From NCBI GenBank assembly GCA_000165425.1, contig CT868096.1, positions 310,001 through 374,000 on the forward strand: a stretch of 64,000 nt of DNA. The letters run 5' to 3'. A program made the position numbers and the translations under genes. Below are positions 1 through 40,180 of this stretch, in pieces; position 1 is the first letter of the stretch, and each line of letters begins with the position of its first letter. The stretch comes from Paramecium tetraurelia (Eukaryota). The notes under the pieces are model-generated. The model ran no database searches. It saw only the letters and a program-made list of their open reading frames with translations, and was not told the origin of the DNA.

Positions 1-3000
1 AACACCAGTCTGTTCTTTGAGTTCGAATGTATGGAACCATGTCACCGTTGGTATTTTAGATATAAGTATTAATGATGATTTTAAGCCATTAAATTAAAGG
101 AAATTATTGAGAATCTTTATTGGCAATGTAGAACGAAACTTAACTATAATTACAAACGTTAAGCCTTATTAAAAATTAGTGTTAGGACCAGTATTTATGG
201 ATGATTAGGGGTCAGAAATTGTTGAAATTTAAGATATCAAAATTTTTAAAGGATTTGGAATTAGATAAACTTATAATTAAGATTGTTAAATATTTGTTGG
301 CAGCTATTGTGCATTTTGTAAACCCAGCACTCATTTCTGTAAAGAATAAGATCCTAATGACGATTCAAAATTTTATATATGTCCAGCTGGATATAAATAT
401 GAAAATTACCTATGCAAAAAAATAATGATTCCAAACTGTCTCAGGATGTCATCATCATCACCTTCATGTGAAATTTGTGATTAGAATTATAACTTAATTA
501 GCGGTTTATGCTAATTAAAAAACTTAGCGGCATCTTCCCCATTCACTTGTAGTGATACAAATGCACAACTTTGCTCATTCAACATTACTTAAGATGTAAT
601 TCTATAATCTTCAAATACTAAGCAAGTAAGTAAATTATGCAGCAATAATAAATACTCCAATGCTCAATCAACATGCGCTTTAATAACAGTACCCAATTGC
701 GATAAAGCTCAATATCAAAGTGGTTGTAGTTAATGCAGCCCTTCCTATATAATGACAGATAAAAAAACTTGCGCAACTTCTTGTCTAAATGCCTTAAGAT
801 TTATTGGATAAAGCAATATCTGTGTAGGTAAGTGTGATAGATACCTCTTTAAAGCTGTTTGTTAAGGTCTGAAATATAAAAGCATATAATATAACTGTAG
901 TCTTTAAAAGAATTGTACAACTGCTGAAATGGATATTGGTTATTATTGTTTGCCAATAGAATTCAGTGTTCCTGGTAAAACTCAAAATTGCTTAAAATTA
1001 ACAGCAAATTGCAATTCAATCTGCAAACATTGTTTTGGAACTGATATAACTCATTGTTTGGCATGTTATTCAGATATGTATTATAACCCTTATATGACAA
1101 CTTGCATGCCTAACTGCAATAACGCAGCCAAAGGTAATATATTTTTATTTAATAACAAAATTAAATGGTTGTGTGAAAAAGAATGCCCAACTAACTTATA
1201 TACATAGAATTCTGATTGCGTTCAGATATGTAGTGCCGGATATAAATTATATGATAGAAAATGTATTCTAACAACTTAAAATGCTACATATGGAGTATTA
1301 TAAGATTTCCCTAACAATGCACCACCCACTTAAATGGTCGTACTTAAGTATTGTCCTTAATTTTGTAAATAATGTACAAGTGAAGCTGTATGCACTAGTT
1401 GTTTAAATCAATATCCAATGGATTAAAATATGTGTGTTGAGTCATGCCACCCTCAATACTTAGAAGTAATAGATAACATTGGTTCGTGTAGAATGTCTTG
1501 TGACCCTCATGATTTGATTTATGATAATGAAGACATTAATGGATATAAGATTAAATAATGCTTTAAGATAAAATGCGGATCTATAAGAGTCAATAAAGAT
1601 TATTAAACTTTTCTTCATTAATCTGACTCTCATCGATGTATGTATCCCTGTGACGACGGATATTATGGTAATACTTTACTTTTATAATGCTTACCTTGTA
1701 ATCCTATTTGTGCTACTTGCTCATAGAGTGCAATCTACTGCACTTCTTGCCCATACTTTAAGTTTTTAGATTAATCTGGCTGTTACGATTCTTGTTAAGG
1801 TAAGTATCAAAATTATTTGAACTCAAAATGTGAAGGATCATGTTCATTAGGATTTTAGGTAATGGACGTGGCTAAAAGTATATTTGCATGTGTTGAATAT
1901 TGTGGAGCTAACTATCCGACTTATTTATATTCTTGGAATAATAGATGTTATGAAGAAGCACCAACGATAGGAGCTTATTGTGTAGACAAGAATTGTTATA
2001 ATTGTAATTATAAGTGTAAAACCTGTTTTGGTCCTGACTAAAATCAATGTTTAAGTTGTAAGGCTAAATCATATTTACTTAACAATGAGTGTGTGAAACA
2101 GTGTTATCCACTATATAATGATAATATAAAATGGGAATGTGTTGATAAATGTACTGATTCCATTTAAACTTATGGTCCACAAGTTGTTAATGGTTCGACA
2201 TAAACAGTTACATATTGTTCAGTAACTTGCTTGTTTAATCAGTATCAATTCAAAGAAAAATGCTATAATTCTAAACCTGCAGAAACCTATTGCTTATAGA
2301 GAACCAATTATTTATTTTGTGATAGCTGTGCCTCAGTTTGCAAAGAATGCCAAAATGCTTACTCTACATCCTGTTCAAGATGTGCCCCTGGTGCTTATAT
2401 CTATGGAACTACCTGTTATACAGATTGTCCGGACAATGCACCTTATAAGGATACAGGCAGACTTTAATGCGTGACGAATTGTGATTACTATGCTGAAAAT
2501 GGAATTTGCGTTTATTCCTGCTCCTCTTCCTATTACTAATATCCAGAAATGAGAACATGTTACCAAATGGGCTGTCCTATGGGTACTTATAATATTAAAC
2601 CTTATAAAATTTGCTATAAATGTTACACTGGATGTGCCACTTGCACTAGTGGATATTAAAATGGATGTTTGACTTGCTAAGTTGGATACTTTATGAATGG
2701 AGGGACAACTTGTATCAATAAATGCATTGTTGAACCTGATTTAGTTTAAGATTGGGTTAATAGCAAATGTGTTTAATAATGTCCTTTTGGAACTTTCATA
2801 AGAACATTAGATAATGGAGCACTTGCTTGTACTGAAGATTGTCCCAAATATTATTATTCAAACATATGCGTTTCTGAATGTCCTAGCTAAACCTATTTAG
2901 ATAAAAAGATTTGCAAAAGTTGTGCTGGTCCTTGTTCAGAATGTTTTGGTGTTAAAGTATTTGAGTGCACTAAATGTGATATTGGTTATTATAGAGATGA

Positions 3001-6000
3001 AACAACATGCTATGCTGTTTGCCCTGACCCAAAGCCTTATGCAAATTTAGCTGACTCAACATGTGTGACTACTTGTCCTGACTACTTATATTTGAAAAAA
3101 AAATATTGCTTTAGTCCTTGTCCTGGATTTTTATACTAATATGAATTAAATGGTAAGAAAGAATGTGTAGATTAATGCTATTCAAATTCATACTTATGGC
3201 TTGGGAAATGCTATTAATGCGATCCCATTTGTAAGGAGTGTTTTGGGCCTAATAATGGTAATTGTCTTGAATGTCAACTTCCTTATTTTTTGGATGAATA
3301 GACTTGTGGGAACACTTGTCCTCAGTTTTATGATTTAACTGATCATGTCTGCAAGGATGCATGTCCTGTTAATTTAGTAATCTAAGGAATGAATTGTTAA
3401 AATGAATGTGATTTAGGATATTTAGTGTATAATTAAGTTTGTGTAAATACTTGTCCAAATTTTGCATATCAAGTAGGTGATCACTGTTATGATTGTAATT
3501 TATATTGTAGCACTTGTTTTGGACCAACAGCTGATGAATGTTACTCTTGCATAGATAATTACTTTTTATATTAACAGAGTTGTAAATCAGTGTGCCCTCA
3601 TTTTTATAATAAAGAAAATAAAACTTGTATGGAAAATTGTAGTAATATGTATGAAATAGCAGAAAAAAAAGAATGCGTTACAACATGTCCATCATAATAT
3701 ATCCTCTGTGAATCTAAGTGTATTTTAGTTCTAGAAGATGGATATTATTTAAACGGTAATCAATGTGTAAAATGTGATCCTAAATGTTCCAAATGCACCT
3801 CAGCAACAGTTTGCTAAGCTTGCGCCAAAAATTTTTATCTAGAAGTAACTTCATGTGTCAATTTTTGCTCAAATGAATATTTGTTCATGGATCCCATTTC
3901 AAGTTCATGTGTCACTAAATGTCCTTCTACTTTATACCATTTAGAATCGTTTGGTAAAAGGTTCTGTGTTTCAGATTGCCCTTATAAACTTTATGATCAA
4001 TGTGTATCAGCTTGCCCAAGTGGAATGTATCCAAAAGATACTATTTGTACTTAATGTCCAAAATATTGTAATGAATGTGAGTCAGCTACAAAATGCTCAT
4101 CCTGTTTATTTGGCTATTATTTATAAGATGAACAATGCTAACTAAGTTGCACAATTGGAAAGACTGATAGAAAGAATATTAAATGTGTTGATGAATGTGA
4201 CCCTACTTTATTTGAATACTAAAATGAATGCTTAGAAAATTGTCCTACTGATCCAATTGTCTATAAGAATAAATAAATCTGTGCTCTTAGTTGTCCAATA
4301 GCCACATATTAAGATGCATAAGAGTGTCGAGATTGTGATTCATCATGTACATCATGTATTGGCCCTTCATATTAAGATTGCATCACTTGTTCAAATGGAT
4401 ATTATCTAGATAATCAAATTTGCACTTAAACATGCTCAAATTTATATGATGAAGTTAACAAATAATGTGTACTTACTTGTCCTACTAATCTCTACTTAGA
4501 TCTTGATAAATGTGTTGCAATTTGTAGTATATATGAGTACAATAGCGTATGTGTTAGTACCTGTCCACCATTAACGTACTTTTTGAATAAAAAATGCCAT
4601 GATTGTTCAGAAAACTGTTAGGAATGTAATTCTATTGGTTGTATCAAATGTGCTGTTGGCACCTATTTAGATGATGGATTATGTAATAATTATTGCCCAT
4701 ATTATTACAATGATGTTAATAATGAATGTGCTTAATTATGTCCTAAAGATACATATCTATATATTGACCATTGTTATTCTCAATGTCCATTGAGTACTTT
4801 TTAGTATAAGAAAGATTGTCTTTTAGCTTGTCCATCTTTAACAGTCTTATAGAATACTTAATGTGTATAATGTCCTGAAAGATGTTTGACTTGTAAGAAT
4901 GAATATGAATGCTCTAAATGTGAAAGTCCATACTTTTTATTTAATGGCTCTTGTGTTATACATTGTCCATTATAACTACCATTTGAAGATATTACTAATG
5001 GCTAGTGCGTGTCTGTTTGTCCACCAGAAGCTTATGAGAGAGGATATGAATGTATAAAAGAATGTAATTTAATCATATACTAAAAATAATGTCTTTAAGC
5101 ATGTCCTACTGGATATTATGGTAATGATTATTGTAAGCCTTGTCGATTAGAATGTAAAGCATGTTCAACTTTTGAGGTTTGCACTGAATGTAATGATAAC
5201 TTTTTCCTTGAATACAATTAATGTGATACATAATGTACAAAAATTAAGGATTTAAAATCCAAATCATGTGTTGATACATGTAACTCATTACTATATAAAA
5301 ATGTTTGTTATCAAACTTGTCCTTAAAATACTTACGAAAATACGAATGAATGTGTTTTAAGTTGTAATGATGGCTATTATGGTTCTTAAGACTTTAAATG
5401 TATAAAGTGTCCTTAATAATGTGGAACTTGTACTAGTGTTTTATAATGTACTAAATGCAATATTGGATATTTTCTTTACAATAAGTAATGTTTGGACTAA
5501 TGCCCAGGATCATTTTTTTCTAACCCTATACTTAATGAATGCTCAAATAAATGTCCTTTAACTACATTTATATTTTAAAATTCATGTCTTTTTGAATGTC
5601 CATCTGAATATTTAAATGATATGGAAAATTATAAATGTGTGAATAGTTGTGGATCTTAATAATATTTAAGTAAAAAGAACTGTTTAAGTTGTGCAATAGA
5701 ATGTGATTCATGTACTGGAAGAGGAAATAATAATTGTATCAAATGTGCAAGCGGATTTACATTAACTGAAGATGGAATTTGCTTAGGCAGTTGTAAAGAT
5801 GGATATTATAAGTCAGATAATTCATGTCAACAATGTTTACATAAATGCTAAACATGTGAAAATGGAACTGATTGTAAAAAATGTAGAGGTACTAATCGAA
5901 ACCTTGAAGATTGTTCTTGTTAAAAAGGATATTATGATGATGAATATTAGGATGATTGTAAAAGATGTCCTTGTGATGAATGTACTGCTGCTGATAATTG

Positions 6001-9000
6001 TCTTATATGTAAAAACAATTTATAAGTTCCAAAATGTTCTTGTGATAGAGTACTCAATCAAGATTGGTGTATAACATGTCAAGTAGCAAAAGTCAATATT
6101 TATTACACTGATGATCTTAATGAAATAATTGTTCATTTTGGTTATTTGATTTCCGTTGATTTAATCAATCCATTTTAACCCTTCAAATTGTTCATTGTGG
6201 TTTGATAATTCTGAAATCTTTGGTTAAAATGCTTAATGTTATTTATCTTGGAATAGATATGCAGTTCATATAACCCTTAAAGCCATATGCATCTGTTAAT
6301 ATTGGAGACAAGTTGAGTTTTAAAAATTCATTTTATAGAGATGTGGATCAAGGAATTTGTGATGGTTAATTTATAGAACAATTTATTGAAAACAAAGTAG
6401 GAGAACCTAAAAGCTTGTAAAAACCATATATTCTATTTGATATTCCTTCTTTTGTTAGTACTTGTAAAACAATATATATCAAATAAATTCTATTAGATGG
6501 CACTGGTTAAAAAATCTAAAATGTTCTATCTTGGACACTCAAAGAAATGAAGGATGAAGAATAGTATTTATAAATGGATGCATTTTTAGCAAATTAGTTA
6601 AATGAAATTACAATTCCTATTGGAACATTATAACCTAACCTTACATATACAATCACAGCTAAATATGTTAATTTCTTGCAAAGAGTAAATTTCACAACCT
6701 TTACATTCACAACTCTTCCAATGCAAGCTCCTTATGTATTTTTGTCATATGACACCTCTAATAGCAAGAGTTTATATATTTGATTGTCATGTCTCGTACT
6801 CAGATATGAAAAACGTATTTAATGTTGCTATTGAAATAACAGATGCTAAAAACAAAACATACATTTCTTTAACAGAATAAATAAATCCAATTTATGAAAT
6901 TCCACTAAATGAATCTCTACTCCCTAAAGAACACTCCTTTAATATTTACTGCATCAACAGGAAGTTCAATTATAATTGAAACTATTAATCTAAAATCAAA
7001 ACTAATTGATATTAAATTTTTATAAAAAGATAGATTTATTGGTTTAGATAATCAAATTAATGCAAGAGGGTTTGATAGAAATATATAGGATGAAATTTTG
7101 AGCACAATGGAAATTAATTATGAATGGCAATGTAATAACTTATTTAATTTATAACCTTGCAAAACAGATGAAAACTAAATTATGCAATTTCCTTCTCGAA
7201 GAGTTGTCAACCATTTTTGCTGATAGTTAAAATACAACTTTAGTATTCTTTGCAAAAGCATCTAAAGGGAATAGATGGACAGTCAAAGAATAGTTAATAG
7301 TAATCACAGATTTTAATATTGAAGAAGAATTTTATATCAACAATAATGATCCATAAAATTCTATTAACGCAAATGATGAAGTAACAATCTTAATTAAAAA
7401 ACAATAAAAGTATGCTTTTATTATTCAAATAACATAAAATTTTATAGTCCCTGAAAATATCAAGTTTGTCATTAAAATTTAGATTGGCTGGTTTAACTAC
7501 TGATTATATAAATCCTGTCTACATCTACTTGGTACCAGGTAATGAATCAATTGGTTTCAAACTGAACGATCCTCCTGAACAAATTTATTTCAAGATTGAG
7601 CCTTTGATTGGAGAATCACTAGATTATTTTAATTACACTCTTTCCAATCTTAAACCTGGAAATTCAATAAGTTTCTATTATTATTTTGAAAATTCCGTTC
7701 TTGAAAATGATGTTAATATATAATCTATAATTAATGGAATACCATTAATCAAAGACTCAAAAGAAACTTTTGGATAATTTTAGTTGCCTAATGGAATTAC
7801 TAATAATTCAATTTCGGTTCTCTGTGAGATATCATCCTCTTATGGAGCTAAAACTTATTTAAAACAAGAAGTTTATGTAATGAGGAAAAATTATGAATTA
7901 CAATAATTATACCAATCGTTCACTAATAAAACAAATTTAGAAAACTTATAAAGTCTTCATACAATGATTGCACTAATCTAGTTAGAAGAACATTAAGTAT
8001 GCTTGAAATAATGCTCAGGGGTTGGGACATGTGTAAATAAGAAATGTTAATGTCCTCCTGGATATTACTTTGCTGATTGTAGTGGAAATTAGGAATAATA
8101 AACAAAATTCAATGATTTTATGTTTAATGCTATGTAATCCCTGATCAAAGCACCAATAAAAAATAACGATGATATGAAATTGTTTAGTCAAACTCTCTAC
8201 TTTTTAACATAATTTAGTTCTAATAATACATTAAGTTTAGAAGATTGCTCTATTGTTTTACAATAATATATAAAGAATACAAATTCTAGATTAGAACAGA
8301 TAAATTAATTTTCAATAAATTTATAATATTAATCAACTGAAGATTTTAATTACTCTTAAATTGATATTCGCTCTTTAGTAAACAAAAACGATTTACATAC
8401 AGCTCTTAAAAGTACTGTTTTTATGTGGGAAAAGACATTATTTACTTCAGGTTCAAATGTTTATTCATTATAAAATCAACTCAACAATTTGATAAACAAT
8501 ATCATTGAATTAACTATCTTCTCTTTAAGTCCTAATGATAAAGTAGACTTTTCAATAGATACTGCATCTATAACTGTTTAAAAATCCTAAAGCCTCCCAT
8601 ATAACTCAAGTAGAGTGTTAGAAGAAATCAATAGCTAGAAATCAGCAATTTATGATATCGTTTATGCAATTTACATTAGAAACTTTTATGCTTTTGATGG
8701 TTACTTCCCATACCCATAGTAAATTTATCCATTATATGATTATTAAATCAGATAGTCCAGTAGAAAAGAAAATATATAGTTAGATTAGCCAATTTCCTAT
8801 CGATTTGGAATTCAAAATGATACTACTAATTTAGTTTGTTTATAAAGAAATGCTAAGACCTATGAATGGTTTGATTAAAATTGCACCATCTCTGAAATAA
8901 ATTCAACTTACTATTGTAATTGTACAACTCTCTCTCCTACAACAATTTGCAATGACTATGATTTTCTTTATTAAGGATCTTCAGGATTCAGGATAAGTCT

Positions 9001-9839
9001 TCCAAATATTTTTTACATCGTTTACATTATTTAATTAATAATACTAGGAATATTTGTGAGCAAATCAAAAACATAAAATGGAGAATAAAAAACTGAAGAT
9101 ACTAAATTTGGTCGTGTCTTTAAATTAGCTAAACATAACAAAGTGAATGTAATTGGCAACTAAGTTTATCCAGTTGATCATGAAAAGGACACAAGAGAAT
9201 TAATAATAAAGCCAGAAGTAGCCAATAAAGATAATAAAAATGATAAGTTTCATTTTAATTATTTCTGGGTACTCAATTTATGCATATATTTAGAAATACC
9301 ACTGCTTAGCATAATTGATATTTAAATAGTTAGCTTACCTTAGCCCATTTATGAGATCACTTTTAATATTATTAAGATGGAATTCTGCAATTATTGTTGG
9401 AGAATTTCTATCCTTGATTTACTTTGACTACTAAATATCTATCTGGATTATATTTGCATCAATAGTCATAATGAGACTTAGTGAGAATTTCTTAAAAGTA
9501 AATATAATTCTAATTTTAGAAATAAATAAAGTATTTTTTTGTCATGAAATAAATTATTCTGGTGATATTAATCAAAGGTTTTATATTTTTACTATTGGTG
9601 TTTACAATATTATGTGGAATTTACTTTTATTTACTGATAGATGACTAAACAAGTTTGGTATTTTAATCTATTATATTTAGATACTTTCTTATTCCGCTGC
9701 AATTATAATTGATATCCTTCTGCTTGATATCATTATTTTTGGCTCAAAAAGATTTTTAGGGGAAAATAAGAAGAAGAATATAAGAAAAAAGATTAATGAG
9801 CTAAAATAAATTGCTAAAGTACATAAGTAGAACGATTGA
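1..9839 (+). CDS. Giant Cys-rich furin-repeat / REJ / EGF / GPS / 5-TM polycystin-1-like receptor, copy 1 (5'-truncated by window edge; six +1 frameshifts as assembled)
   Basis: Open in frame +2 with TAA/TAG=Gln. Motifs: LamG-like WNHVTV at the start, CxxC repeats to ~6080, REJ-like NDPP..IEPLIGESLDYF (~7565) and LPNG..SYGA, EGF CSGVGTCVNKKCQCPPGYYFADC (~8010), GPS-like W..QNC..YCNCTTLS (~8870-8935), then hydrophobic helices. Introns 9269-9293, 9498-9519, 9658-9680; TGA 9837-9839. Frameshifts between 6181 and 7429 inferred from the paralogue. Confidence 0.85.
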
Positions 9840-12587: not shown

Positions 12588-15500
12588 ATGTGTTTTTTTA
12601 TAAAGGCATTTTTATTTTTATTACCCTTTTTAAACCAAGCCCAAAGATTTAAACTGTAAGGATCGAAGCCGTTATATATGAATTGCATAGACATTAATGA
12701 AAGTTTTAAGAATTTATTATGTTGTAGGTGATAATGGCTTTGTGGGAAACTAGTACTTTTATGATTAGCTCTCATAATCTGGAAGTTTGGTAAATCTTGA
12801 CAAAATTACATTTACCTTATGGATAAATGTATATTAAAAATACAAACTGAATGGAAAGTAAATTTTGTTTGCTTTTGTCGATGGTAACACAAATAACCCT
12901 GTAAAGTATTAACTCATATTAGTATCTTAATTTAATATTATATTACACAATTTCATCAGGATAGTATACTATGACCTTATCAAATGAAAGATTTTCTCCA
13001 GAGATAGTTTTATTACCATTATCACAGTATACAATTTATATATTCCAGGTAAAATGATCTTTATATTGGCAGTTGGTGTCATATAGTATTATCTATAGAT
13101 TAGAGCACAAGTAATACTTTTATTAATTTGAAATTTTTTTCTACATATGATAATTCACTGAATTAGATTCAAGACGTTCTAGTGAATTAAAAGTAATTAA
13201 TTTTTTTTTTATAATTAGATTAAAATATAAATTTGGAGTGCATTCTAGAATAACTAATGAGTAATTATTTAAATCCTCTACTGATTACAAAGCATGTGTA
13301 AATATTGCTAATTTTTATTATATCAACGGATGGACAACAATGGATTCAGAAACTTATATGGACTATGATTTAGAATTGAAGTTCTTTCTCAAACCTTATA
13401 GGGCCAAAGGCTTTAATGTTAACGACTAATTTATGAATGTAGCTTTGAGATAATATTCCAACCCTGTATTTCTGGGTAGTCCTATAGGATTATACTTGTA
13501 TAAGAACACACAGATAGTGTATACTTTTATGGAAGATCTAGGTTCCTTAACAATGATGTTTTGGATTAAGCCAATGAATATCGTATCGCTTTTTTAGTTT
13601 ATTTCTTTGACTGATGATGCATTATAGTAGACAAGCATAGGATTTGGAGTAAGTTCTGACTATTACTTATAATTTCATTAAAATTATGGTAAGTCCCCGT
13701 TAGGTAAATTAGAAGAAAGCACTTGGGCTCATGTGACAGTTGGTGTTTTGGAGCTAAGTTATAATTCTGATTTTATTCCTACAAGCTCAGTTAAGCTATT
13801 AAGAGTTTTTATTAATAAATCTTAGGTTGAATATAAAAAGATCTATTCCGTGATAGCATACAAAAGATTAATATTGGGACCAATATTTACTGATGATTAT
13901 GGAGATGAATGCATCGATATTTAAGACATCAAAATTTATAAAGGCTATGGTATCTAAAAATCTCAAGGGGATTGCAGATTATTTGTTAGTGCATATTGTG
14001 CATTCTGTAGACCTGATACTCATTATTGCAAAGAGTAGGATCCAACTGATGATGATAATATTTATACTTGTGCAGCTGGCTATAAAGAAACTCCAAATGG
14101 CTGTTCTCCTATAACAATTTAAAATTGTCTTAGACAATCTGGACCACAATGTGCAATTTGTGCAGATAATTATAACTTATCTTCCGGAAGTTGCACTTAG
14201 ATAAATCCCTTAGTGTCACCATATGAATGCGATGATCCTAATGCAATATTTTGCAGAAGAACAATTTATAGGGATAATTCAAAGTCTACTTTCGAATAGA
14301 GTAAACTTTGTAAACTAGATTATGGATAACAGTCTAATTAATTTTACTGTGAAAATAAATACTCAAATAACTGCGTCTAGGCTCAATTCTAATAAAAATG
14401 TTATAAATGCAATAATAATTACTACTTAACCGAATAAAATACATGTTAAGTAACTTGTACACAACTTAACAAATTTTAGTCTAACGGAGTTTGTTTAAAA
14501 AAGTGTCCATTTAAATATTATTATACGTTTAATTGTTATAGTACATCATCACTACCTTAATATTATTGTAGCTCTTAGAAGTGCGATCAATAGAAAGAAC
14601 TAGATCTTGACTATTATTGTCTAAATTATTTTTATTCAAATGGTAAGTATAAATATTGTACACTACGTGGTTAAACCTAAGAAAACGAAAAATGGATTGA
14701 TTGCCATTCTGACTGCAAATATTGTTTTGGTTGGTAATAAAATTAATGTTTGGGTTGTTATTCAAACAAATTTTTTAGTCCGTATGACACAAAATGCGTA
14801 GATGATTGCAATGATCTAAAATATTTTAAATATAATAATAGAGATAAAATGGTTTGTGAATTAGAATGTCCTTCAGATTATTTCACATAGGATTTAGAAT
14901 GCGTGAGGAGTTGTAAAATTGGTTATGCTCTTTATAATAAAAAAATATGTTAACCAGATACTCAAATTACAGATAATTTCGTATCCATCTTGATGTTCAA
15001 ATCTGTATTTGTTGATTGTCCTCAAGTTTGCTAAACATGCACAAGTTAAACAATTTGTACTAGTTGTCTAAATAATTATATTTTAACTTAGAATAGTTGT
15101 CCTGTAACATGCTATCCAAAATATCTCTACATTGATGAAGATGACGTGAGTCATTGCTTAACCAGCTGTGACCCAACTGATTTAGTATATGATAATTCTA
15201 ATATTGACGGGTATAAAATTAGACAATGCTTCAAACTTAAATGTGGTTTTATCTAACTTGGTAGGACATAATAAACTTATTTACATTAAACGAAACCTCT
15301 TACTTGTGTGTATCCATGTGATCCTGATCATTATCCTAATCAAAACAATTATTCATGCGTTAAATGTGACCCTATTTGTCTCAATTGTTAAAACTCAGCT
15401 ACTTTTTGTACTAAATGCTAACCAGGGACCTATCTTTAAGATAATAGTTGTTTCACTTCCTGCAAATCTAAATTTAAGAATTATTACAATAATCAATGCG

Positions 15501-18500
15501 AAGGCACATGCTCTTCCGGATATGCAGTTATTGACAAAGCTCTAGACATTTAAGCCTGTGTCCAATAATGTGGGATGATGTTTTCTATGTTCCTCTATAC
15601 ACTCAATACTCAATGCTATCAGGCTCCTCCTGTCATTGGAGCATATTGCGTAGGTTACTAGTGTTACAATTGTTATTATAAATGTAAGACTTGTACTGGT
15701 CCCAATTATTATTCGTGTTCATCTTGTTATGATAAGACATTTCTCTTAGATAATAAGTGTGGGACAAATTGTGATGATAAGTATTATGATTTGTTAAATT
15801 GGAAATGCGTCGATGTTTGTCCAAGCAATGTATACACTACCTCTGGCTATTAATATGTTAATGGAAATTTGACTTTTGTCACATCCTGTTCCTCCACATG
15901 CTTATATGATTAGTTTTAATTTTAGGGTAAATGTACTGATATCTAACCAGAGGGAACTTACTATACCCAGAAGTCTAATTATAAATTATGTGATAAATGC
16001 ACAGCAGTATGTTTAACATGTTTTGATTCCTATTCAACTACTTGTACGGAATGTAATGTAGGATCTTATTTATATGATACTACTTGCTCCTCTGAATGTC
16101 CTGATGATGCACCATATAAAGATACTCTTTAAAATTTGTGTGTTGTTACTTGCACCAGTTATTAAGAAAATGGATATTGCGTTGCTGGCTGTTCGGATAA
16201 TTATTACACATATGATGCTCAGAAATAATGTTACGAGTTAGGTTGTCCAGAAGGAACATTTAATCTGGCTAATACACTTGAGTGCTATGCTTGTGCTCTT
16301 GGATGCGCTACTTGTACAGATGGATCCTCAAGTTCTTGTATCACTTGTATAGAAGGATATTTTCTGCTAGGCACATCAACATGTACAAATGTCTGTAATG
16401 TGAGTCCTGACCTTATTTAAGATTGGATTAATGGAAAATGTGCTAAATAGTGTCCAGCTGGAACTTACTTGTAAACTTTGGCAAGTGGGTAACTAGCATG
16501 TAAAGACACTTGTCCTGTTCTTTATTATTCAAATATTTGTGTTGCAGCATGTCCTGCTCAAACTTATGCTGATGGCATTATTTGCACTCCATGTGCTGGG
16601 CCTTGCTCTGTTTGTTTTGGCGAATTAGTAAACCAATGCACAAAGTGTGATTCTGGATATTACTTGGCTGATACTAGTTGTGTTGATGTATGTCCAAATT
16701 CAAAACCTTATGCAAATTTAGCTGATTAAACTTGTGTCTCGACTTGCCCAGATTACTTGTATTTAGCCAAAAAAATCTGCTTTAGTCCTTGTCCAGGTTT
16801 CTTAGCTATTTATCAATTAAATGGTAAAAAAGAATGCGTTGATTAATGCTATTCAAAATCCTATTTATCTTCTGGAAATTGCTTACAATGCAATGCCATT
16901 TGTAAAGAATGTTATGGACCGATCAATGGAAACTGTTTATAATGTGAAGCACCTAACTATTTATATTAATAAAAATGTTCACCTTCTTGCCCATCGTAAT
17001 TATACACTGACTTGATAGATAGAGTTTGCAGAGAATCTTGTCCATCCAACACTGTTATCTAAGGATAGAAATGTTAAGCTTAATGTGATGCAACTTATTT
17101 ACTGTATGGTTAATTTTGTGTCGCAACCTGTCCAGCATTTACCTACAAATCAAATACAAAATGTTTACTATGCAACCCACTATGCAGGTCTTGTAGTGGA
17201 CCTTTAATCACCACTTGTTCTTCTTGCATAGAAAACTATTTATTAGATGGCACTACTTGCACATAAACTTGCCCAATCCTATATGATTATGAGGCTTAAA
17301 AATGCGTAAGCACTTGTAATACAAAGTTTGAATTAACTGATTTGAAAAGTTGTGTGACAACTTGTCCAACAGGATATATTAAATGTAATAAAAAATGTTT
17401 GAAAACTGCACCTGATGGATATTATTCAGATGGAATAAGTTGCCTGTAATGCAATAGTAAATGTACTAAGTGCACATCCCAAAATGTATGCTAAGCATGC
17501 AGTAAAAACAACTTTCTATCTTTGTAGACCTGTGGATTTTTGTGTACTAACAAATATCTTTATATGGATTCAACAACAGGAACTTGTGTTACAAAATGTC
17601 CACCTCAACTTTACCATTAAGAATCGTATGATAGAAGGACTTGTGTTGAGGATTGTCTCTTAGGCTATAAACTTAATGATTAATGTGTTAGTTCTTGCCC
17701 AAAAGGAATGTATACTAAGGATAATTTCTGTACAAATTGCCCTTAGACATGCGAAGAATGTACCTCAGCAACAAATTGCACTGTATGTATCAAAGATCAT
17801 TTTTTGGAAAACGGACTTTGCTATATAAGTTGTTTGGTTGGCAAAACAGATTATAAAAATAATTCATGTGTCTCATAATGTGATCCATCATTATTTGAAT
17901 ATCAAAACTAATGTTTAGTAAGTTGTCCTACAGATCCAGTATTTTATTATCATTCAAATATATGTATGGATGCATGTCCAGAGAGTACATACTAGAATAA
18001 ATAAGAATGTCTGGATTGTGATGTGTCATGTTTGTCATGTATTGGCCCATCGAACAACGATTGTCTAGTTTGTAAAGACACCTATTACTTACATGACTAA
18101 TAATGTATTCTCACTTGTCCTAATTTATATAATGAGGTAGATAAAACATGTGTTCTTTCTTGCCCTCCAAATCTTCTTTTGGATGGAAATAAGTGTGTTT
18201 TGATTTGTAGTTAGTACATGTACGACAATACTTGTTTGTCGAGCTGTCCTATAGGAGCATATGATGCAAATTACATTTGTTTCGATTGTTCTGAGAATTG
18301 CCTTGAATGCAACTCTTTTGGCTGCACTAAATGCGGCAACGGAACATTTTTAAATGATGGAAGTTGTAGTAGTTTTTGCCCATACTTTTACAATATTATC
18401 AATTATCAATGTGAGTAATAGTGCCCAGAAGGAACATATCTTTATATTGATCAATGCTATGCAACTTGTCCAGCCAATACATATACATATCTGTAAACAT

Positions 18501-26903: not shown

Positions 26904-26914
26904 TAATTTTATTA

Positions 26915-27386: not shown

Positions 27387-27420
27387 ATATTAATATGCAT
27401 AAATATTTGTTATATATCAA

Positions 27421-29250: not shown

Positions 29251-32200
29251 ATGATGTATTTAGTGTTCGCAATCCTGAGCTATGTTAATTCGTAAACAAA
29301 GATAAATTTACAAGGAGCTTTGCCATTACATATGGATTGTAGTAATGTTGATGAAAGTAGCTATGTAAAGTCTTATCAATAGTTGAAAATGGATTCGTAG
29401 GATTGCAATACTTCTACGATTAACTCTCGCAATAAGGATAAATTAATAATTTAGATTAGTTGACCTTCAGCATTTGGATAATGGTTCATTCGTAGATGAA
29501 ATTAGGTGGAAGATAAATAATTTTTGCCTTTGTTGATGGTTATACAAAAAACCCAGTAGGAAATTTATTTTATATTTAGTATTTAAACTTAATGCTTTAC
29601 TATTAAATAGAGTCTGGCGATTATTACATGTATTTGGTCAATTCTAAATTTGAGCCAGAAATTTTAAAGCTAAAAATTGATTAGTAAAATTTTCCTTTTA
29701 TAAATAGAGTCAATGATCTCTACACAAGCTATTGGAATCATATATTGCTTTCAATAGATTCAAGAACTGAAAATGCGTTTATAAATCTAAAATTTTTTTC
29801 GACTTATAATTACTAACTCTCTTAAAAACTAGAAACTTTAGTTACTCAAAAGTAATGTTTTTCATAATTGAAAGGTTAATTTATCGATTTGGATCGCATT
29901 CAAGAATAACAAATGAATAACTTTATGATATGACTTCTGATTATATGGCTTGTATAGATATTGCTAATTTTGATTTAATCTATGGATGGACAACTATGGA
30001 TTCAGAAATCTATGTTGATTATGATGTCTAACTAAAATTTCTTTTAAAACCTTTTCAAGTTAACTCAATCAATGTGGAAAGCTAATTTTAAGATATCAAA
30101 TTAAGAGTAAGTCTTAATCAGGCCTCATATAGTGGACCAATTGGTTTATATGTATATAGAGACAAGCAGATAGTCTATAGCTTTGAGGAGTAGATGAGTT
30201 CGTTCACTCTAATGTTTTGGGTGTAACCAAGAAATATAGCTAAAGTTTTTCAATTTTTCTCCTTCACAGATGATTTAGTGCAAGAGACAAGTATAGGATT
30301 CGGTGTTAATTCAAATTACAAGCTTGTATAATATTAAGCCTATACAGTACAAAACCAATTAGGCAGCCTCTCAGCTAATATATGGAATCATGTGATGATA
30401 GCATTATTGGATATAAGCATAAATGAAAATTTTATTCCTTAAAACTCGAAGAAAGTAATGAGAACCTTTATTGACACTTCCCAGACTTCTTTAATTATAG
30501 TTCAGAATATCAAGGCGTATAAGCGACTCGTAATAGGCCCTGTTTTTAAAGATGCTCGAGGATATGATTTCTTGGATATTTAAGACATTAGAATATTTAA
30601 AGGTTATGGAATTTTATAATCATCTGGTGATTGCCAATACTTTGTTGGACCCTATTGTGCTTTTTGCAGAGGAGGAACTCATTACTGTAAAGAATAAGAT
30701 CCTAATGATGACGTTTTCTACTATAACTGCCCTGCTGGATATATTGAATAATCAAATACTTGTGTTTCAACAACTATACCAAATTGTTTAAGATAATAAG
30801 GTAATAATTGCAAGGCGTGTGAAAGCAATTATTGGTTGGATAATAGCACTGGAAGATGCATTTTGTCAAGCAGTTCACCTAAATCCCCTTTCTATTGTTA
30901 AGATTCATAAGCAATTTTTTGTCAAAAAACAATTTTATATTCAATATCAACATCTCAAAAATAGGAAGTAAGTAAACTATGCTAGGTAAATGTAGCATAG
31001 TATAGTTCTTCTTAGCTAACTTGTTAAGGTTGGTCAGTAGATTCATGCAATTAAGCATAATATCAAAGTTAATGCTATAATTGTGGTTATAATACTGTTT
31101 TAACTGAAAAAAAAGTATGTAGATGGCAATGTACATCAAATTATAGATTCAACAATAATAAAATTTGTTAGAAAAGTTGTAAGTCTAAATATCTTTATAA
31201 CTATTCTTGTACTTATTCTAGTCCTTATAATTATGTAACTTATTACTGCAATCCTAATTCTTATTGCTAGTCAAATGAAATAGATTTAGGATACTATTGC
31301 TTAAAACCTGAGTAACAAAGAGAAGGAAGAACTAGGGGGTGTATAATTACTGGCAGAAACCAAATGAGAGACAGCACTATTTATTGCCATAATAGTTGTA
31401 AATATTGTTTTGGGCCAGGTGATTAAAATTGCCTAGGTTGTTATTCTGATAAATTTTTTAATCCCTATTTAACAGCTTGTGTTACTAATTGTAGCAACAA
31501 AGGTCTTTTCAAATATAATAATTAGCAAACAAAAGTTTGTGAATTGGAATGCCCTACTTATCTATACATAAAAAATTATGATTGCGTGACTGATTGTGGT
31601 TTAGGATATGCTTTATACAAGAACACATGTTTACCAAATACATATTTAACAGAAAATTACCTTACTACTTCTGTGGATTCATCCTCCCAAATAATAGATG
31701 TAATGCTTGATTGCCCATAATTGTGTTAAACATGCACTAGTCCTACCATTTGTACAAGCTGTCTGAACACATATCCTATAGATTAAGGTATGTGTGTATT
31801 GTCATGCTTCCCCAAGTTCTTGTTAAGACAAGATGATGGTGTTAGTGTCTGTTTATCTAATTGTAATCCAAGTGATTTAGTTTATTAAAACGATAACTTT
31901 AATGGTTATACAATAAAATAATGTTTTCCAAAAAAATGCGGATCAATAAAGGTGAACAAGATCTATTAAACTTATTTACATCAATCTGATACTCATCGAT
32001 GTATGCAACCTTGCGATGATGGATACTATGGCCATCCTGCCACATTTGAATGTACTCCCTGTGACAGCAATTGCTTTACTTGTTAAGACTTTGCTAATTT
32101 CTGTACGTCTTGCAATTTTATGGAATTTCTATTAGATAATGTTTGTTTTAATACATGTGGTACTAAATTTTAAAATTATATAAATTGGAGATGTGAAGGA

Positions 32201-35200
32201 ACCTGCTCTACAGGATACTCTATTATTAATAAAGACTTAAGCATCTATGCTTGTGTCGAATAATGTGGACAAATTTATGCTTAATACCTCTATTCTTTTT
32301 AAGGCTAGTGTCTTGTTACCATCCCTCTAATAGGAGCATATTGTATAGGGAGCAATTGTTATGAATGCAACGAAAGTTGTAAAACCTGTTCTGGACCTAG
32401 TTAAAATGAGTGCCTATCTTGTTATTCTAAGACTTATTTATTGAATAACACCTGTGGAATCAATTGTGGGTCATAAATGTATGACATGGCTAATTGGTTA
32501 TGCGCTGATGACTGTCCATACTCCACTTTTAAAACTAATAATGGTAGCACTTATTACTGTTCATTAACTTGCCTTTACAATTAATATTAATATAAAACTA
32601 AATGTTATAATAGTTAACCTTTTGGAACCTTTTGCCAATCTAGAACAAATTATGTTTTTTGTGATGGTTGTGCTGATGTCTGTAAAACATGTACTACATC
32701 CTATTCTACCTCTTGTTCTTAATGTAATCCAGGAGCATACTTATATGGAACAACTTGTTACTCAGATTGTCCCGATGTTGCCCCTTACAAAGATACCATT
32801 TCTAATAAATGTGTCACTTCTTGTAGTAACTATCTTGAAGACGGATTTTGTGTGAACACTTGCCAACCTACTTCTTACATATATACTCAATAAATGAAAT
32901 GCTTTATTATGGGATGTCCAGAGGGAACATATCAATAAACAAACACTAATTATTGTTACGCTTGCAATACTGGTTGTTCTACATGTACAGGTGGAGGAAT
33001 CACTCAATGTCTAAGTTGTATATCAAACTATTTTTACAATAGTGATGGATCATGCTCTTCAAATTGCTTAACAAACCCATATATTATTCAAGATTGGGTT
33101 AACTCCCTTTGCGTATAATAATGTCCCTTTGGTACCTACATGCAATCGTTGTCGGGAGGAGCTCTTGCATGTAAGGATACTTGTCCACAATATTATTATT
33201 CAAACATTTGTGTACCTAATTGTCCAAACGAAACATATATGGATGGCAAATTTTGTATCAGTTGTGCTGGTCCATGTTCTGTCTGCTATGGCGCTGCTGT
33301 TAGTTAATGCTCTTAATGTGATATTGGATTCTATTTGTATGATACTACTTGTGTTGAAACTTGTCCTAATCTAAAACCCTTTGCAAATTTAGCTGATTAA
33401 ACTTGTGTTACTAATTGCCCATAATATTTATATTCACCTAAAAATCTTTGCTTTAATCCTTGTCCTGGGTTTTTATACTATTATGAATTAAACGGTAAGA
33501 AAGAATGTGTAGATTAATGCTATTCAAAATCATACTTATGGCTTGGGAAATGCTATGCATGCAATTCCATTTGCAAAGAGTGTTTTGGGCCCAATAATGG
33601 TAATTGCCTTGAATGTGAACTTCCGTATTTCTTGAATGAATAGACTTGTGGGAATACCTGCCCTCAGTTTTATGATTTAACAGATCACGTATGCAAAGAT
33701 GCATGCCCTGTTCATTTAGTAATCTAAGGAATCAATTGTTAAAATACCTGTAATTCTGGATATTTAGTGTATAATTAAGTTTGCGTAAATGCTTGTCCAA
33801 ATTTTGCATATCAAGTAGGTGATCGCTGTTATGATTGTAATTTATTTTGTAGCACTTGCTTTGGACCAACAGCTAATGAATGTTATTCTTGCATAGATAA
33901 TTATTTTTTAGATTAAAATAGTTGTAAATCAACATGCCCTTAGTTCTCAGATGTTGATGATAAGTTATGTGTATCTGATTGTAGTGGAAAATATGAACAT
34001 AAAGATAAAATGTAATGTGTTTCAACTTGTCCCACAGATTACTTGTATTGCTTATCAAAATGCGTTAAAACTTTAGATGATGGCTATTATAAAGATGGTA
34101 ATCATTGTTAATAATGTGATCCTAAATGTATAAAATGCACATCAGCAACAGTTTGTTAAGCTTGTGCTAATAATTTTTATCTAGAAGTAAATTCTTGTGT
34201 GAATTTTTGCTCTAATTAGTATTTGTTCATGGATCCCATCTCAAGATCATGTGTCACTAAATGTCCTTCTATTTTATACCATTTAGAATCATTTGGTAAA
34301 AGATTCTGTGTTTCAGAGTGCCCCTATAAACTTTATGATCAATGTGTTTTAGCTTGCCCAAGTGGAATTGTTCCCAAAAAGATACCGTTTGTACTAATTG
34401 TCCATAAATTTTGTAATGAATGCGAATCGGCTACAAAATGCTCAGTATGTTAATTATGGTTACTATTCAGAAAATGATCAATGCTAACTAAGTTGCACAA
34501 CTGGAAAGACTGATAGAAAGAATATTAAATGTGTTGATGAATGTGACCCTACTTTATTTGAATACTAAAATGAGTGTTTAGAAAATTGTCCTACTGATCC
34601 AATAGTCTATAAGAATAAATAAATCTGTGCTCTTAGTTGTCCAATATCCACATATTAAGATGCATAGGAGTGTCTAGATTGTGATTCATCATGTACATCA
34701 TGTATTGGCCCTTCATATTAAGATTGCATCACTTGTTCAAATGGATATTATCTAGATAATCAAATTTGCACTTAAACATGCTCAAATTTATATGATGAAG
34801 TTAATAAATAATGTGTACTTACTTGTCCTACTAATCTCTACTTAGATCTTGATAAATGTGTTGCTATTTGTAGTACTTTTGAGTACAATAGCATATGTGT
34901 TAATACCTGTCCACCATTAACTTACTTTTTGAATAAAAAATGCCATGATTGTTCAGAAAACTGTTAGGAATGTAATTCTTTTGGATGTACCAAATGTTCT
35001 GTTGGCACCTATTTAGATGATGGATTGTGTAATAATTATTGCCCATATTATTACAATGATGTTAATAATGAATGTGCTTAATTATGTCCTAAAGATACAT
35101 ATCTTTATATTGACCATTGTTATTCTCAATGTCCATTGAGTACTTTTTAGTATAAGAAAGATTGTCTTTTAGCTTGTCCATCTTTAACAGTCTTATAGAA

Positions 35201-38200
35201 TACTTAATGTGTATAATGTCCTGAAAGATGTTTGACTTGTAAGACTGAATATGAATGCTCTAAATGTAAAAGTCCATACTTTTTATTTAATGGCTCTTGT
35301 GTTGTGCATTGTCCATTATAATTACCATTTGAAGATATTACGAATGGCTAGTGTGTATCTGCTTGTCCACCAGAAGCTTATGAGAGAGGATATGAGTGTA
35401 TAAAAGAATGTAATTTAATCATATACTAAAAATAATGTCTTTAAGCATGTCCTACTGGATATTATGGTAATGATTATTGTAAGCCATGTCGATTAGAATG
35501 TAAAGAATGTTCAACCTTTGAGGTTTGCACTGAATGTAATGATAACTTTTTCCTTGAATACAATTAATGTGATACATAATGTACAAAAATTAAGGATTTA
35601 AAATCCAAATCATGTGTTGATACATGTAACTCATTACTATATAAAAATGTTTGTTATCAAACTTGTCCTTAAAAACACTTACGAAAATACGAATGAATGT
35701 GTATTAAGTTGTAATGATGGCTATTATGGTTCTTTAGACTATAAATGTCTAAAGTGTCCTTAATAATGTGGAACCTGTACTAGTGTATTATAATGTACTA
35801 AATGCAATATTGGATATTTTCTTTATAATAAGTAATGTTTGGACTAATGCCCAGGATCATTTTTTTCTAACCCTATACTTAATGAATGCTCAAATAAATG
35901 TCCTTAAACAACATTTATATTTTAAAAATTCATGTCTTTTTGAATGTCCATCTGAATATTTAAATGATATGGAAAATTATAAATGTGTGAAGAATTGTGG
36001 ATCATAATAATATTTAAGTAAAAAGAACTGTTTAAGTTGTGCAATAGAATGTGATTCATGTACTGGAAGAGGAAATAATAATTGTATCAAATGTGCAAGT
36101 GGATTTACATTAACTGAAGATGGAATTTGCTTAGGCAGTTGTAAAGATGGATATTATAAGTCAGATAATTCATGTCAACAATGTTTACATAAATGCTAAA
36201 CATGTGAAAATGGAACTGATTGTAATAAATGTAGAGGTACTAATCGAAACCATGAAGATTGTTCTTGTTAAAAAGGATATTATGATGATGAATATTAGGA
36301 TGATTGTAAAAGATGTCCTTGTGATGAATGTACTGCTGCTGATAATTGTCTTATATGTAAAAACAATTTATAAGTTCCAAAATGTTCTTGTGATAGAGTA
36401 CTCAATCAAGATTGGTGTATAACATGTCAAGTAGCAAAAGTCAATATCTATTACACTGATGACCTAAACGAAATAATTGTTCATTTTGGGTATTTGATTT
36501 CCATTGATTTAATCAATCCCTTTTAGCCCTCAAATTGTTCTTTGTGGTTTGATAATTCTGAAATCTTTGGTTAAAATGCTTAATGTTATTTATCTTGGAA
36601 TAGATATGCAGTTCATATAACCCTTAAGCCATATGCATCTGTTAATATTGGAGACAAGTTGAGTTTTAAAAATTCATTTTATAGAGATGTGGATCAAGGA
36701 ATTTGTGATGGTTAATTTATAGAACAATTTATTGAAAACAAAGTTAGAGAACCTAAAAGTTTGTATAAACCATACATTCTATTTGATATTCCTTCTTTCG
36801 TTAGTACTTGTAAAACAATATATATCAAATAAATTCTATTAGATGGTACTGGATAAAAAATCTAAAATGTTCTATCTTGGACACTCAAAGAAATGAAGGA
36901 TGAAGAATAGTATTTATAAATGGATGCATTTTTGGATAATAAACTAAATGAAATTACAATTCCAATTAGAACTTTATAACCAAATGTGACATATACAATC
37001 ACAGCTAAATATGTTAATTTCTTGCAAAGAGTAAATTTCACAACCTTTACATTCACCACTCTTCCAATGCAAGCTCCTTATGTATTTTTATCATATGAAC
37101 CTCTAATAGCAAGAGTTTATATATTTGATTGTCATGTCTCGTACTCAGATATGAAAAATGAATTTAATGTTGCCATTGAAATAACAGATGGTAAAAACAA
37201 AACATATATTTCGTTAACATAATAAATAAATCCAATTTATGAAATTCCACTAAATGAATCTCTACTTCCTAAAGAAACTCCTTTAAGGTTTATTGCATCT
37301 ACAGGAAGTTCAATTATAATAGAAACGATTAATCTAAAAGCAAAATCAATTGATATTAAATTTTTATAAAAAGATAGATTTATTGGTTTAGATAATCAAA
37401 TTAATGCAAGAGGGTTTGATAGAAATATATAGGATGAAGTTTTGAGCACAAAAGGAATCAATTATGAATGGCAATGTAATAACTTATTTAATTTATAACC
37501 TTGCAAAACAGATGAAAACTAAATTATGCAATTTCCTTCTCGAAGAGTTGTCAACATTTTTGCTGATAGTTAAAATACAACTTTAGTATTCTTTGCAAAA
37601 GCATATAAAGGGGATAGATGGACAGTCAAAGAATAGCTAATTGTAATCACAGATTTTAATATTGAAGAAGAATTTTATATCAATAATAAAGATCCATAAA
37701 ATTATATTAATGCAAATGATGAAGTAACGGTCTTAATAAAAAAATAATAAAAGTATGCCTTTATTATCTAAAAACACAAAATTATATAGTCCCTTAAAAT
37801 ATCAAGTTTGTCATTAAAATTTAGATTGGCTGGTTTAACTACTGATTATATAAATCCTATCTACATCTATTTGGTACCAGGTAATGAATCAATTGGTTTC
37901 AAACTGAACGATCCTCCTAAACAAGTTGATTTCCAGATAGAGCCATTGATTGGAGAATCTCTAGAGTATTTTAATTACACTCTTTAAAATCTTTAGTCTG
38001 GAAATTAAATAAGTATCTATTATTATTTTGAAAATTCTGTTCTTGAAAATGATGTAAATTCATAATCTATAATAAATGGAATACCATTAATCACAGACTC
38101 AAATGAGACTTTTGGAGAATTTTAGTTGCCAAGTGGAATCACTAATAATTCAATTTAAGTTCTATGTGAGATATCATCTTCCTATGGATCTAAATCTTAT

Positions 38201-40180
38201 TTGAAACAAGAAGTTCATGTAATAAGGAAAAATTATGAATTGCAATAATTATACCAATCGTTCACTAATAAAACAAATTTAGAAAATTTATAAAGTCTTC
38301 ATACAATGATTGCACTAATCTAGTTAGAAGAACAGTAAGTATGCTTGAAATAATGCTCAGGGGTTGGGACATGTGTAAATAAGAAATGTTAATGTCCTCC
38401 TGGTTATTACTTTGCTGATTGTAGTGGAAATTAGGAATAATAAATAAAATTCAATGATTTTATGACCAATACAATTTAATCTTTGGTAAAAATACCAATA
38501 AAATATAATGATGATATGAAATTGTTTAGTCAATCTCTCTAATTTTTAACATAATTTAGCTCTAATAATACATTAAGTTTAGAAGATTGCTCCATTGTTT
38601 TACAATAATATATAAAGAATACAAATTCTAGATTAGAATAGATAAATTAATATTCAATAAATTTGTAATATTAAGCAACCGATGATTTTAACTACTCTTA
38701 AATAGATATTCGCTCATTAGTAAATAAAAACGATTTACACACAGCTCTTAAAAGCACTGTTTTTATGTGGGAAAAGACTTTATTTACTTCAGGATCAAAT
38801 GTTTATTAATTATAAAATCATCTCAACAATTTGATAAATAACATCATTGAATTATCTATCTTCTCTTTAAGCCCTAATGATAAAATAGACTATTCAATAG
38901 ATACTGCAATAATAACTATTTAAAAATCTTAAAGCCTCCCATATAACTCGAGTAGAGTGTTAGAAGAAATCAATAGTTAGAAATCAGCAAGTTATGATAT
39001 CGTTTATGCACTTTACATTAGAAACTTTTATGCTTTTGATGGTTACTTCCCATACCCATAACAAATTTATCCATTATATGATTATTAAATCAGATAGTCA
39101 AGTCGAAAAGAAAATATAGAGTTAGATTAGCCAATCTCATATCGATTCGGAATTCACAATGATACTACTAATTTAGTTTGTTTATAAAGAAATGCTAAGA
39201 CCTATGAATGGTTTGATTAAAATTGTACCATCTCTGAAATAAATTCAACTTACTATTGTAATTGTACAACTCTCTCTCCTACAACAATTTGTAATGACTA
39301 TGATTTTCTTTATCGAGGTTCTTCAGGATTCAGGATAAATCTTCCAAACATTTTTTATATCATTTATATTGCTTAATTAATAACTTTAGGAATATTTGTG
39401 AGCAAATCAAAAACATAAAATACTGAATAATAATCAGAAAAGACAAAATTTGGCCATGTTATGAAATTAACTAGAAAAAGTAAGGTGAATATTGTTGGCA
39501 ACAAAGTTTAACAGGTTGAGCAAGAGAAGTAACCTGGATAATTAATAATATAGCCATAATTAAACAAGTAAGATTAGAAAAATGATAAATTTCATTTTAA
39601 TCATTTTTGGGTACTTAATTTATACTTATACTTAGAAATACCATTGTTTAACATAGTTGATATATAAATAGTTAACTTACATTAGTCCATTTATGAGATC
39701 ACTTATAATACTATTAAGATGGAACTCTGCAGTGATTATTGGAGAAATATTAGGTTTTTTCGAATTTGATTTCTAAGTATCTATCTGGATTATATTTGCA
39801 TCAATAATTCTAATGAGAATTAGTGAAAATTTCCTAAAAGTAAATATTATTGTAATTTTAGAAATAAGTAAAGTATTTTTTTGTCATGAAACAAATTATT
39901 CCGATGATATTAATCAAAGGTTTTATAGTATTGCTCTTGATGTTCACAATATTATTTGGAATATCTCTTTATTTAATGATAGCTAACTAAACAAATTTGG
40001 TATTTAATCTTTTATATTTAGATACTTTCTTATTTTATTGCAATATTAATTGATATCCTTCTACTTGATATCATTATCTTTAGCTCTCAAAGATTTTTAG
40101 GGGAAAATAAGAAGAAGAACATAAGAAGAACAATCAAAGAACTGAAATAAATTGCAAAAATTCAAAAGCAATTCAATTGA
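29251..40180 (+). CDS. Giant Cys-rich furin-repeat / REJ / EGF / GPS / 5-TM polycystin-1-like receptor, copy 3 (six +1 frameshifts as assembled)
   Basis: Signal peptide MMYLVFAILSYVNS. Seven introns at the same positions as copy 2 (29357-29382, 29556-29579, 29684-29707, 29852-29874, 39611-39635, 39840-39861, 40000-40021); same domain order; TGA 40178-40180. Confidence 0.85.

Follow-up and report, generated by a model that had tools for sequence, protein, structure and literature searches.

The question raised by a 64,000-nucleotide stretch of the Paramecium tetraurelia genome (assembly GCA_000165425.1, contig CT868096.1, positions 310,001 to 374,000; the whole stretch analyzed is termed the window here) is what kind of membrane protein its three giant polycystin-1-like genes encode, and how much of polycystin-1 these proteins contain. 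The window has 27% G+C, and its long reading frames stay open with genetic code 6 only. The initial annotation, made from the sequence alone, described a tandem cluster of three channel-less receptors, and three paralogs of approximately 3,590 amino acids (aa) each are indeed present on one strand (+); however, they do not follow each other head to tail, as unrelated genes lie between the copies. The domain order proposed there, the REJ-type motifs, the EGF domain, the GPS-like motif and the motif following the loop behind the first transmembrane helix (TM1) were all found in the sequence. As judged from structure models, the five-helix membrane module has a fold like that of polycystin-1 TM1-TM5, and the evidence supports the view that the window proteins represent the front half of polycystin-1 (REJ, GAIN, and TM1-TM5) as a free-standing receptor. 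They are not full members of the PKD1 family, since both PLAT and the channel half are missing.

The assignment of the membrane module was based on hydropathy and structure comparison. In copy 2, the intact gene, single-sequence hydropathy with a bound of 1.7 found only three of the five helices; averaging over the alignment gave five peaks (2.22, 1.52, 1.47, 2.59, and 2.11). A template-free model of copy 1 residues 604–874, built from 35 sequences with a mean predicted local distance difference test score (pLDDT) of 77, shows TM1 and, after a disordered loop, a pair of short helices with a conserved H...R motif and then four long helices. Among 48,161 representative chains the best match to this model was human polycystin-1 3072–3610 with Z of 12.1 (root-mean-square deviation (rmsd) of 5.0 over 174 residues), followed at a distance of 3.9 Z units by the second-ranked match with Z of 8.2, and realignment to two polycystin-1 chains gave Z of 12.7 and 12.2. 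The polycystin-1 structure is later than the AlphaFold2 training set. A seven-helix domain was not seen: there are five hydrophobic peaks, five long helices and no 7TM Pfam match, and chains of G protein-coupled receptors (GPCRs) reached Z of at most 8.0 and covered part of the bundle only. Thus, the proposal of a five-helix, polycystin-1-like membrane part instead of a 7TM domain was upheld.

Several observations weigh against this assignment. The identity in the structural alignment is 10%, the two polycystin-1 chains topping the six Foldseek matches are not significant (E of 4.1 and 7.2), and the structure-comparison tool warns that helical bundles may reach Z of about 13 by common arrangement. 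Moreover, polycystin-1 was missed in three profile searches of PDB sequences, in which the best relevant row was the ADGRG1 GAIN domain (E of 0.014), and a representative-sequence search returned 32 matches, mostly short fragments, with no named PKD1 protein among them. Taken at face value, the low identity, the high rmsd and the lack of significant Foldseek and sequence profile matches would fit a match by chance, i.e., a ciliate-specific bundle located behind a genuine REJ-GAIN ectodomain. We regard this as barely credible, given that polycystin-1 had been named as the target before the structure search and came first of all chains by a wide step in Z, that the match covers model residues 15–241 and with them all five helices (most other rows cover approximately 108–215), and that the module follows REJ and GAIN in the order known from polycystin-1.

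With a polycystin-1-like fold assigned to the module, the parts of polycystin-1 that are lacking can be located. The loop after TM1, at the position of PLAT, is with approximately 70 aa too short for this domain (117 positions in the PLAT model), it is strandless in the model, and no Pfam PLAT match was found on copy 2; PLAT is therefore absent from the window genes. A genome-wide search for PLAT gave no matches, but its controls were equally blank. The window proteins end approximately 30 residues past TM5, where polycystin-1 enters its channel half, and a stop after TM5, judged from genomic frames or database models, was found at all 18 family loci read in this genome, as well as in the database relatives compared. 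None of the 12 PKD_channel matches of the genome lies on this contig, and the nearest one is more than 100 kb away from any family locus. The absence of both PLAT and the channel half, as claimed at the outset, thus holds.

A GAIN domain had been anticipated in front of TM1, and its presence was borne out by structure. The C-terminal 874 aa of copy 1 were modeled from 33 sequences (mean pLDDT of 72, with the first 88 residues being unreliable). The model contains Ig-type sandwiches, an EGF domain and then a helical and beta-sandwich unit, which matches the latrophilin-1 GAIN domain with Z of 13.3 (rmsd of 3.5 over 231 residues) and that of ADGRB2 with a Foldseek E of 2.3e-8; GAIN domains of adhesion GPCRs were the best matches. 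Pfam GPS had no matches across the genome and weak matches in three of the 33 alignment members. According to the available part of PMC9672506, the GPS cleavage tripeptide is defined as H-L|T/S, and PKD1L1 and PKDREJ also lack it and hence are uncleaved. This tripeptide was found in none of the 31 alignment rows containing the last GPS cysteine, and since it is missing, self-cleavage of the window proteins is predicted to be unlikely; release of a tethered agonist would therefore not be expected either. Adhesion GPCRs share with the window proteins a long adhesive ectodomain and a membrane-adjacent GAIN domain, but the window proteins have REJ and no cleavage tripeptide, and they are not adhesion GPCRs because they have five helices instead of seven.

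The REJ module required a detour via paralogs. A direct Pfam scan of copy 2 detected no REJ, GPS, PLAT, channel or 7TM family, and REJ was demonstrated in two steps, namely in distant paralogs of the same genome first, and then by comparing a profile of those with the window clade. Pfam REJ is above cut-off at five more distant paralog loci, and the Tetrahymena "REJ domain protein" XP_001030859.2 is related to another paralog (E of 2e-22). The profile of seven relatives, six of them with Pfam REJ, aligned with the window clade at hhalign 99.95% (E of 3e-38, 597 columns); the query set had eight rows, three of which were cut too long, and the aligned columns correspond to the REJ region. In line with this, a hidden Markov model of REJ-positive relatives matched copy 2 at E of 1.2e-23, and the three top clusters in the ESM Atlas were all REJ, the best with 0.90. 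By sequence profile, the module of the window genes is homologous to REJ, as had been suggested from its motifs. When a Tetrahymena relative was used as ESM Atlas query, all scores were below 0.9, and the GPS clusters, labeled giant virus, Cercozoa and Haptophyta, are leads only.

Further toward the N-terminus, the description of a lectin-like tip on a long Cys-rich rod was confirmed at the level of architecture. Pfam PF13385 (LamG) matched two stretches of copy 2 with 29.5 bits (cut-off 27.6), the second module alone giving E of 0.006. Likeness between the two LamG modules was not detectable (hhalign 1.8%), and internal duplication as the origin of the pair could thus not be traced. The furin-like repeats of the stalk, which makes up more than half of the whole protein, were recognized by Pfam PF15913 at E of 1.2e-5, under its cut-off. 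Between REJ and GAIN there is one EGF-like domain, which is particular to the window clade and absent from the other paralog clades compared. Besides the three window copies, this clade includes paralogs on three other contigs.

The closest characterized look-alikes of this architecture are CRMP1 (TTHERM_00442310) and CRMP2 (TTHERM_00637180) of Tetrahymena, for which the available text of PMC9670195 reports Cys repeats of the EGF-receptor type, GAIN by HHpred and five predicted TM. Their knockouts are impaired in mucocyst discharge, the only genetic data on ciliate proteins with such a design, and the proteins are treated there as GPCR-like. They thus share a Cys-repeat ectodomain, GAIN, five TM and a ciliate host with the window proteins, whereas neither a LamG tip nor REJ is among the domains described in that text, and REJ has no occurrences in the supplements searched. 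Since CRMP1/2 are needed for extrusome discharge, a role in exocytosis or calcium signaling is the likelier one for the window proteins: by analogy, they may be contact sensors that trigger such a response, e.g., trichocyst discharge, a reading that we favor tentatively and hold at slightly under even chances. With an odd number of helices, the N-terminus would be located outside and the basic tail inside of the cell. The LamG tip would reach out to a ligand on some surface, probably a glycan carried by prey, by a predator or by another cell; stalk, REJ and the uncleaved GAIN domain would pass the load or binding on to the five-helix bundle, and the bundle, having no pore, would signal via a separate membrane or cytosolic partner. 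The output would most likely be local, either a calcium signal or the triggering of exocytosis, with trichocyst discharge as an example. Four points count against this proposal: LamG folds need not bind glycans, CRMP1/2 and the window genes were compared by described architecture only, the many paralogs of the family possibly have different jobs, and transcription of the window genes is low, with 225 reads across 19.7 kb (identity of about 0.9) and a depth of at most 2.2 in RNA run X24.

A more specific partner would be the Pkd2 channel, docked in trans in cilia or the cell membrane, so that a two-gene sensor comparable to polycystin-1/2 is formed. The module is what precedes the channel half in polycystin-1, Paramecium Pkd2, located in cilia and the cell membrane, is not known to have a partner of the Pkd1 type according to the available part of PMC6627415, and a later fusion would be easier to picture if both halves once interacted. 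However, the protein stops where the channel-forming half would start and so lacks the region with homology to polycystin-2, and the same partial text names XntA as candidate partner of Paramecium Pkd2 and two PKD2 paralogs, compared with at least 18 receptor loci. Docking to Pkd2 is thus considered unlikely, and the contact sensor acting on exocytosis or calcium signaling remains our preferred reading.

The number of loci, 3 in the window and 15 elsewhere in the genome, is a lower bound, partial copies on the small contigs C429 and C379 having been excluded. One alignment (A2) was set aside because of its noise. Full-length relatives were found in P. octaurelia, P. primaurelia, P. sonneborni, P. 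pentaurelia and P. bursaria (nine matches among 4,513 candidates), and relatives of the module occur also in Tetrahymena and Pseudocohnilembus, beneath different tips. Tips vary on a common base: LamG is present here and on contig C47, and other heads are found elsewhere, such as a leishmanolysin-type M8 peptidase (Pfam E of 6e-30) on the REJ-GAIN-five-helix base of a Pseudocohnilembus persalinus relative. Tetrahymena XP_001030859.2, known from database annotation only, combines Cys repeats and Pfam REJ with a GPS-like motif, shares the H...R motif and likewise has helices up to its end, but its stalk is far shorter and its tip is another one. The paralogs on contigs C89, C646, C535, C681 and C413 possess long cytosolic loops, acidic or Gln-rich, of approximately 200–480 aa where PLAT would be located, and the database model of the paralog on contig C2 appears to read through the introns in front of TM2, resulting in a wrong TM2-TM3 sequence.

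This pattern of conservation bears on the alternative that the window proteins are adhesion or coat proteins without signaling function, the helices merely anchoring the stalk for food capture, coat formation or cell-cell adhesion. The loss of the GPS cleavage motif in all 31 rows would fit such a role, as would the share of the stalk in the protein and the poorly conserved cytosolic loop, which ranges from 70 to 480 aa among paralogs. Against this, the H...R motif in front of TM2 and the five-helix bundle are kept in distant paralogs and in two other ciliate genera, which goes beyond the needs of an anchor, and TM2 and TM3 contain polar residues. A mere anchor is therefore judged improbable in comparison with a signaling contact sensor.

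The gene models themselves had to be revised. Copy 2 agrees exon by exon with the database protein GSPATT00000726001 (P. tetraurelia, 3,592 aa), which is labeled only as "TNFR-Cys domain-containing" or uncharacterized, and its seven introns have 22–26 nt each. The signal peptide and the first LamG module of copy 1 fall outside the window. In the assembly, copy 1 carries six single extra bases and copy 3 five small insertions (Table 1); the resulting breaks of the reading frame were not mentioned in the initial annotation. The extra bases of copy 1 are missing from contigs of independent sequencing runs, namely six of six in run X2 and five of six in run X8 at full depth, with the sixth being uncovered. 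Removal of the extra bases opens the long exons of copies 1 and 3 to 3,088 and 3,244 codons, respectively, with no stops. Since the extra bases are missing in independent DNA and the long exon opens without them, the frameshifts of copy 1 are reference errors and copy 1 is intact; its interpretation as a pseudogene is ruled out by the independent reads. The frameshifts of copy 3 are probably reference errors as well and copy 3 is very likely intact, a pseudogene being unlikely as its long exon opens once the insertions are removed. Owing to the insertion errors, copy 1 appears as separate genes in the annotation of the reference, and its C-terminal 874 aa, annotated as a gene of their own, begin in the wrong frame.

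Table 1. Positions of the three receptor genes and their parts within the window.
Feature	Position	Strand	Remark
Copy 1, 3' part	1..9839	+	start codon ~1.1 kb outside the window, on the 5' side
Copy 1, extra bases	6182, 6279, 6753, 6932, 7211, 7430	+	assembly errors
Copy 2, intact gene	12588..23531	+	3,592 aa, 8 exons
Copy 2, signal peptide-like N-terminus (aa 1–19)	12588..12644	+	read from sequence
Copy 2, two LamG/concanavalin-like modules (aa ~40–430)	12730..13972	+	putative ligand-binding tip
Copy 2, furin-like Cys-rich stalk (aa 431–2360)	13973..19762	+	1,930 aa, 272 Cys, 59 CxxC
Copy 2, REJ module (aa ~2361–2960)	19763..21562	+	Ig/FnIII-type sandwiches
Copy 2, single EGF-like domain between REJ and GAIN	21674..21763	+	Pfam EGF families E 0.0005–0.03, under cut-offs
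Copy 2, GAIN with GPS motif	21764..22654	+	structure match on copy 1 equivalent
Copy 2, cleavage tripeptide position	22619–22627	+	N-L-A; T-L-S in copies 1 and 3
Copy 2, TM1	22697..22753	+	hydropathy and model
Copy 2, cytosolic loop (~70 aa)	22754..22963	+	position of polycystin-1 PLAT; low-confidence, largely unstructured in models
Copy 2, 22-nt intron before TM2 exon	22964..22985	+	spliced out in X16 contig, depth 10.2
Copy 2, H...R motif, TM2-TM5 (three exons), short basic cytosolic tail, stop	22986..23531	+	model of copy 1 equivalent
Copy 3	~29251..40180	+	frame broken in assembly by five small insertions
Copy 3, small insertions	34376, 34405, 34456, 35671, 35924	+	probably errors

Copies 1 and 3 are mosaic. 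Their tips and the first 1,000 aa of the stalk have diverged from each other as far as either has from copy 2, with 0.59 of four-fold sites being different, whereas the proximal stalk, REJ and GAIN differ at 0.07–0.16 of these sites. Because a nearly identical base sits under old, diverged tips, this suggests gene conversion of the base. Old divergent tips over a homogenized base would also fit a recognition role, e.g., in mate recognition or conjugation, and furin-like repeats together with C-terminal helices are features of ciliate mating-type proteins. Expression specific to a stage was not observed, and the gene identifiers searched were found neither in the literature searched nor in the readable supplements of the transcriptome paper PMC3091696, and a mating receptor is deemed highly unlikely; we retain the contact sensor for exocytosis or calcium signaling as the working proposal.

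With the PKD1-like family (PKD1, PKDREJ, PKD1L1-3, and SpREJ3-6), the window proteins have in common the succession of REJ, GAIN/GPS and TM1-TM5, a matching five-helix fold, and an adhesive ectodomain of large size that includes a module of the lectin type. They differ by the lack of PLAT after TM1 and of the six-TM channel half (5 versus 11 TM) and by the EGF domain between REJ and GAIN; polycystin-1 carries PKD repeats, leucine-rich repeats and a C-type lectin domain in place of the furin-like stalk and LamG tip. The truncated sea-urchin proteins SpREJ1, 2, 7, 8 and 9 are also REJ family members without the full channel half, but, as far as described in the available part of PMC1934368, these metazoan proteins have 1, 2 or 6 TM and no five-helix unit ending at TM5. 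SpREJ1, with one TM, lectin domains and EGF, binds fucose sulfate polymer and, upon glycan binding, triggers acrosomal exocytosis according to the same text; next to CRMP1/2, it serves as a second precedent for the proposed exocytosis trigger.

Paramecium has been reported to be without homologous sequences for Pkd1 (available part of PMC6627415). No channel-less polycystin-1-like five-helix receptor of ciliates was found in the literature searched, which included few subscription journals, and the accessible portions of PMC9960496, PMC12716839, PMC13197933, PMC9159632, PMC9815656 and PMC13739732 draw no link between a ciliate protein and the polycystin-1 membrane module. For Tetrahymena, the available text of PMC3321182 reports more than eight GAIN domains and that of PMC11834939, a genome paper, notes REJ domains, and the single supplement of PMC12029339 contains no REJ or PKD entries. 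Our results indicate that Paramecium possesses the polycystin-1 front half, first five helices included, as an independent receptor family of at least 18 loci, which sequence divergence and, in the case of two of the window copies, also assembly errors had kept from view. This suggests that polycystin-1 arose by fusion, it opens Tetrahymena CRMP1/2, now called GPCR-like, to reinterpretation as polycystin-1-like, and it offers a genetically tractable setting for the role of the poorly understood five-helix unit without a pore. It is conceivable, albeit rather doubtful, that the free REJ-GAIN-five-helix receptor represents the ancestral front half of polycystin-1 and that ciliates multiplied it into a family of contact sensors with variable tips, among them the exocytosis triggers CRMP1/2, which gate a separate channel, be it Pkd2 or another one, by way of the five-helix bundle. 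If so, animal polycystin-1 would be a receptor fused with its channel partner and with PLAT inserted, and RNA interference in Paramecium would be a direct assay for the function of polycystin-1 TM1-TM5.

Besides the X24 reads, run X16 (probable RNA) covers copy 2 at a depth of 1–18 and positions 9913–12540 at a depth of 0. A small coiled-coil-like gene is located between copies 1 and 2 (11525–12040, minus strand); a few RNA reads were seen there, running counter to the receptor genes. Between copies 2 and 3, a protein disulfide isomerase-like gene with CxxC thioredoxin-type motifs and an SDDL end was recognized by eye (25538–26960, minus strand), as was, at 49773–50711 on the plus strand, a frame resembling a Myb-repeat protein.

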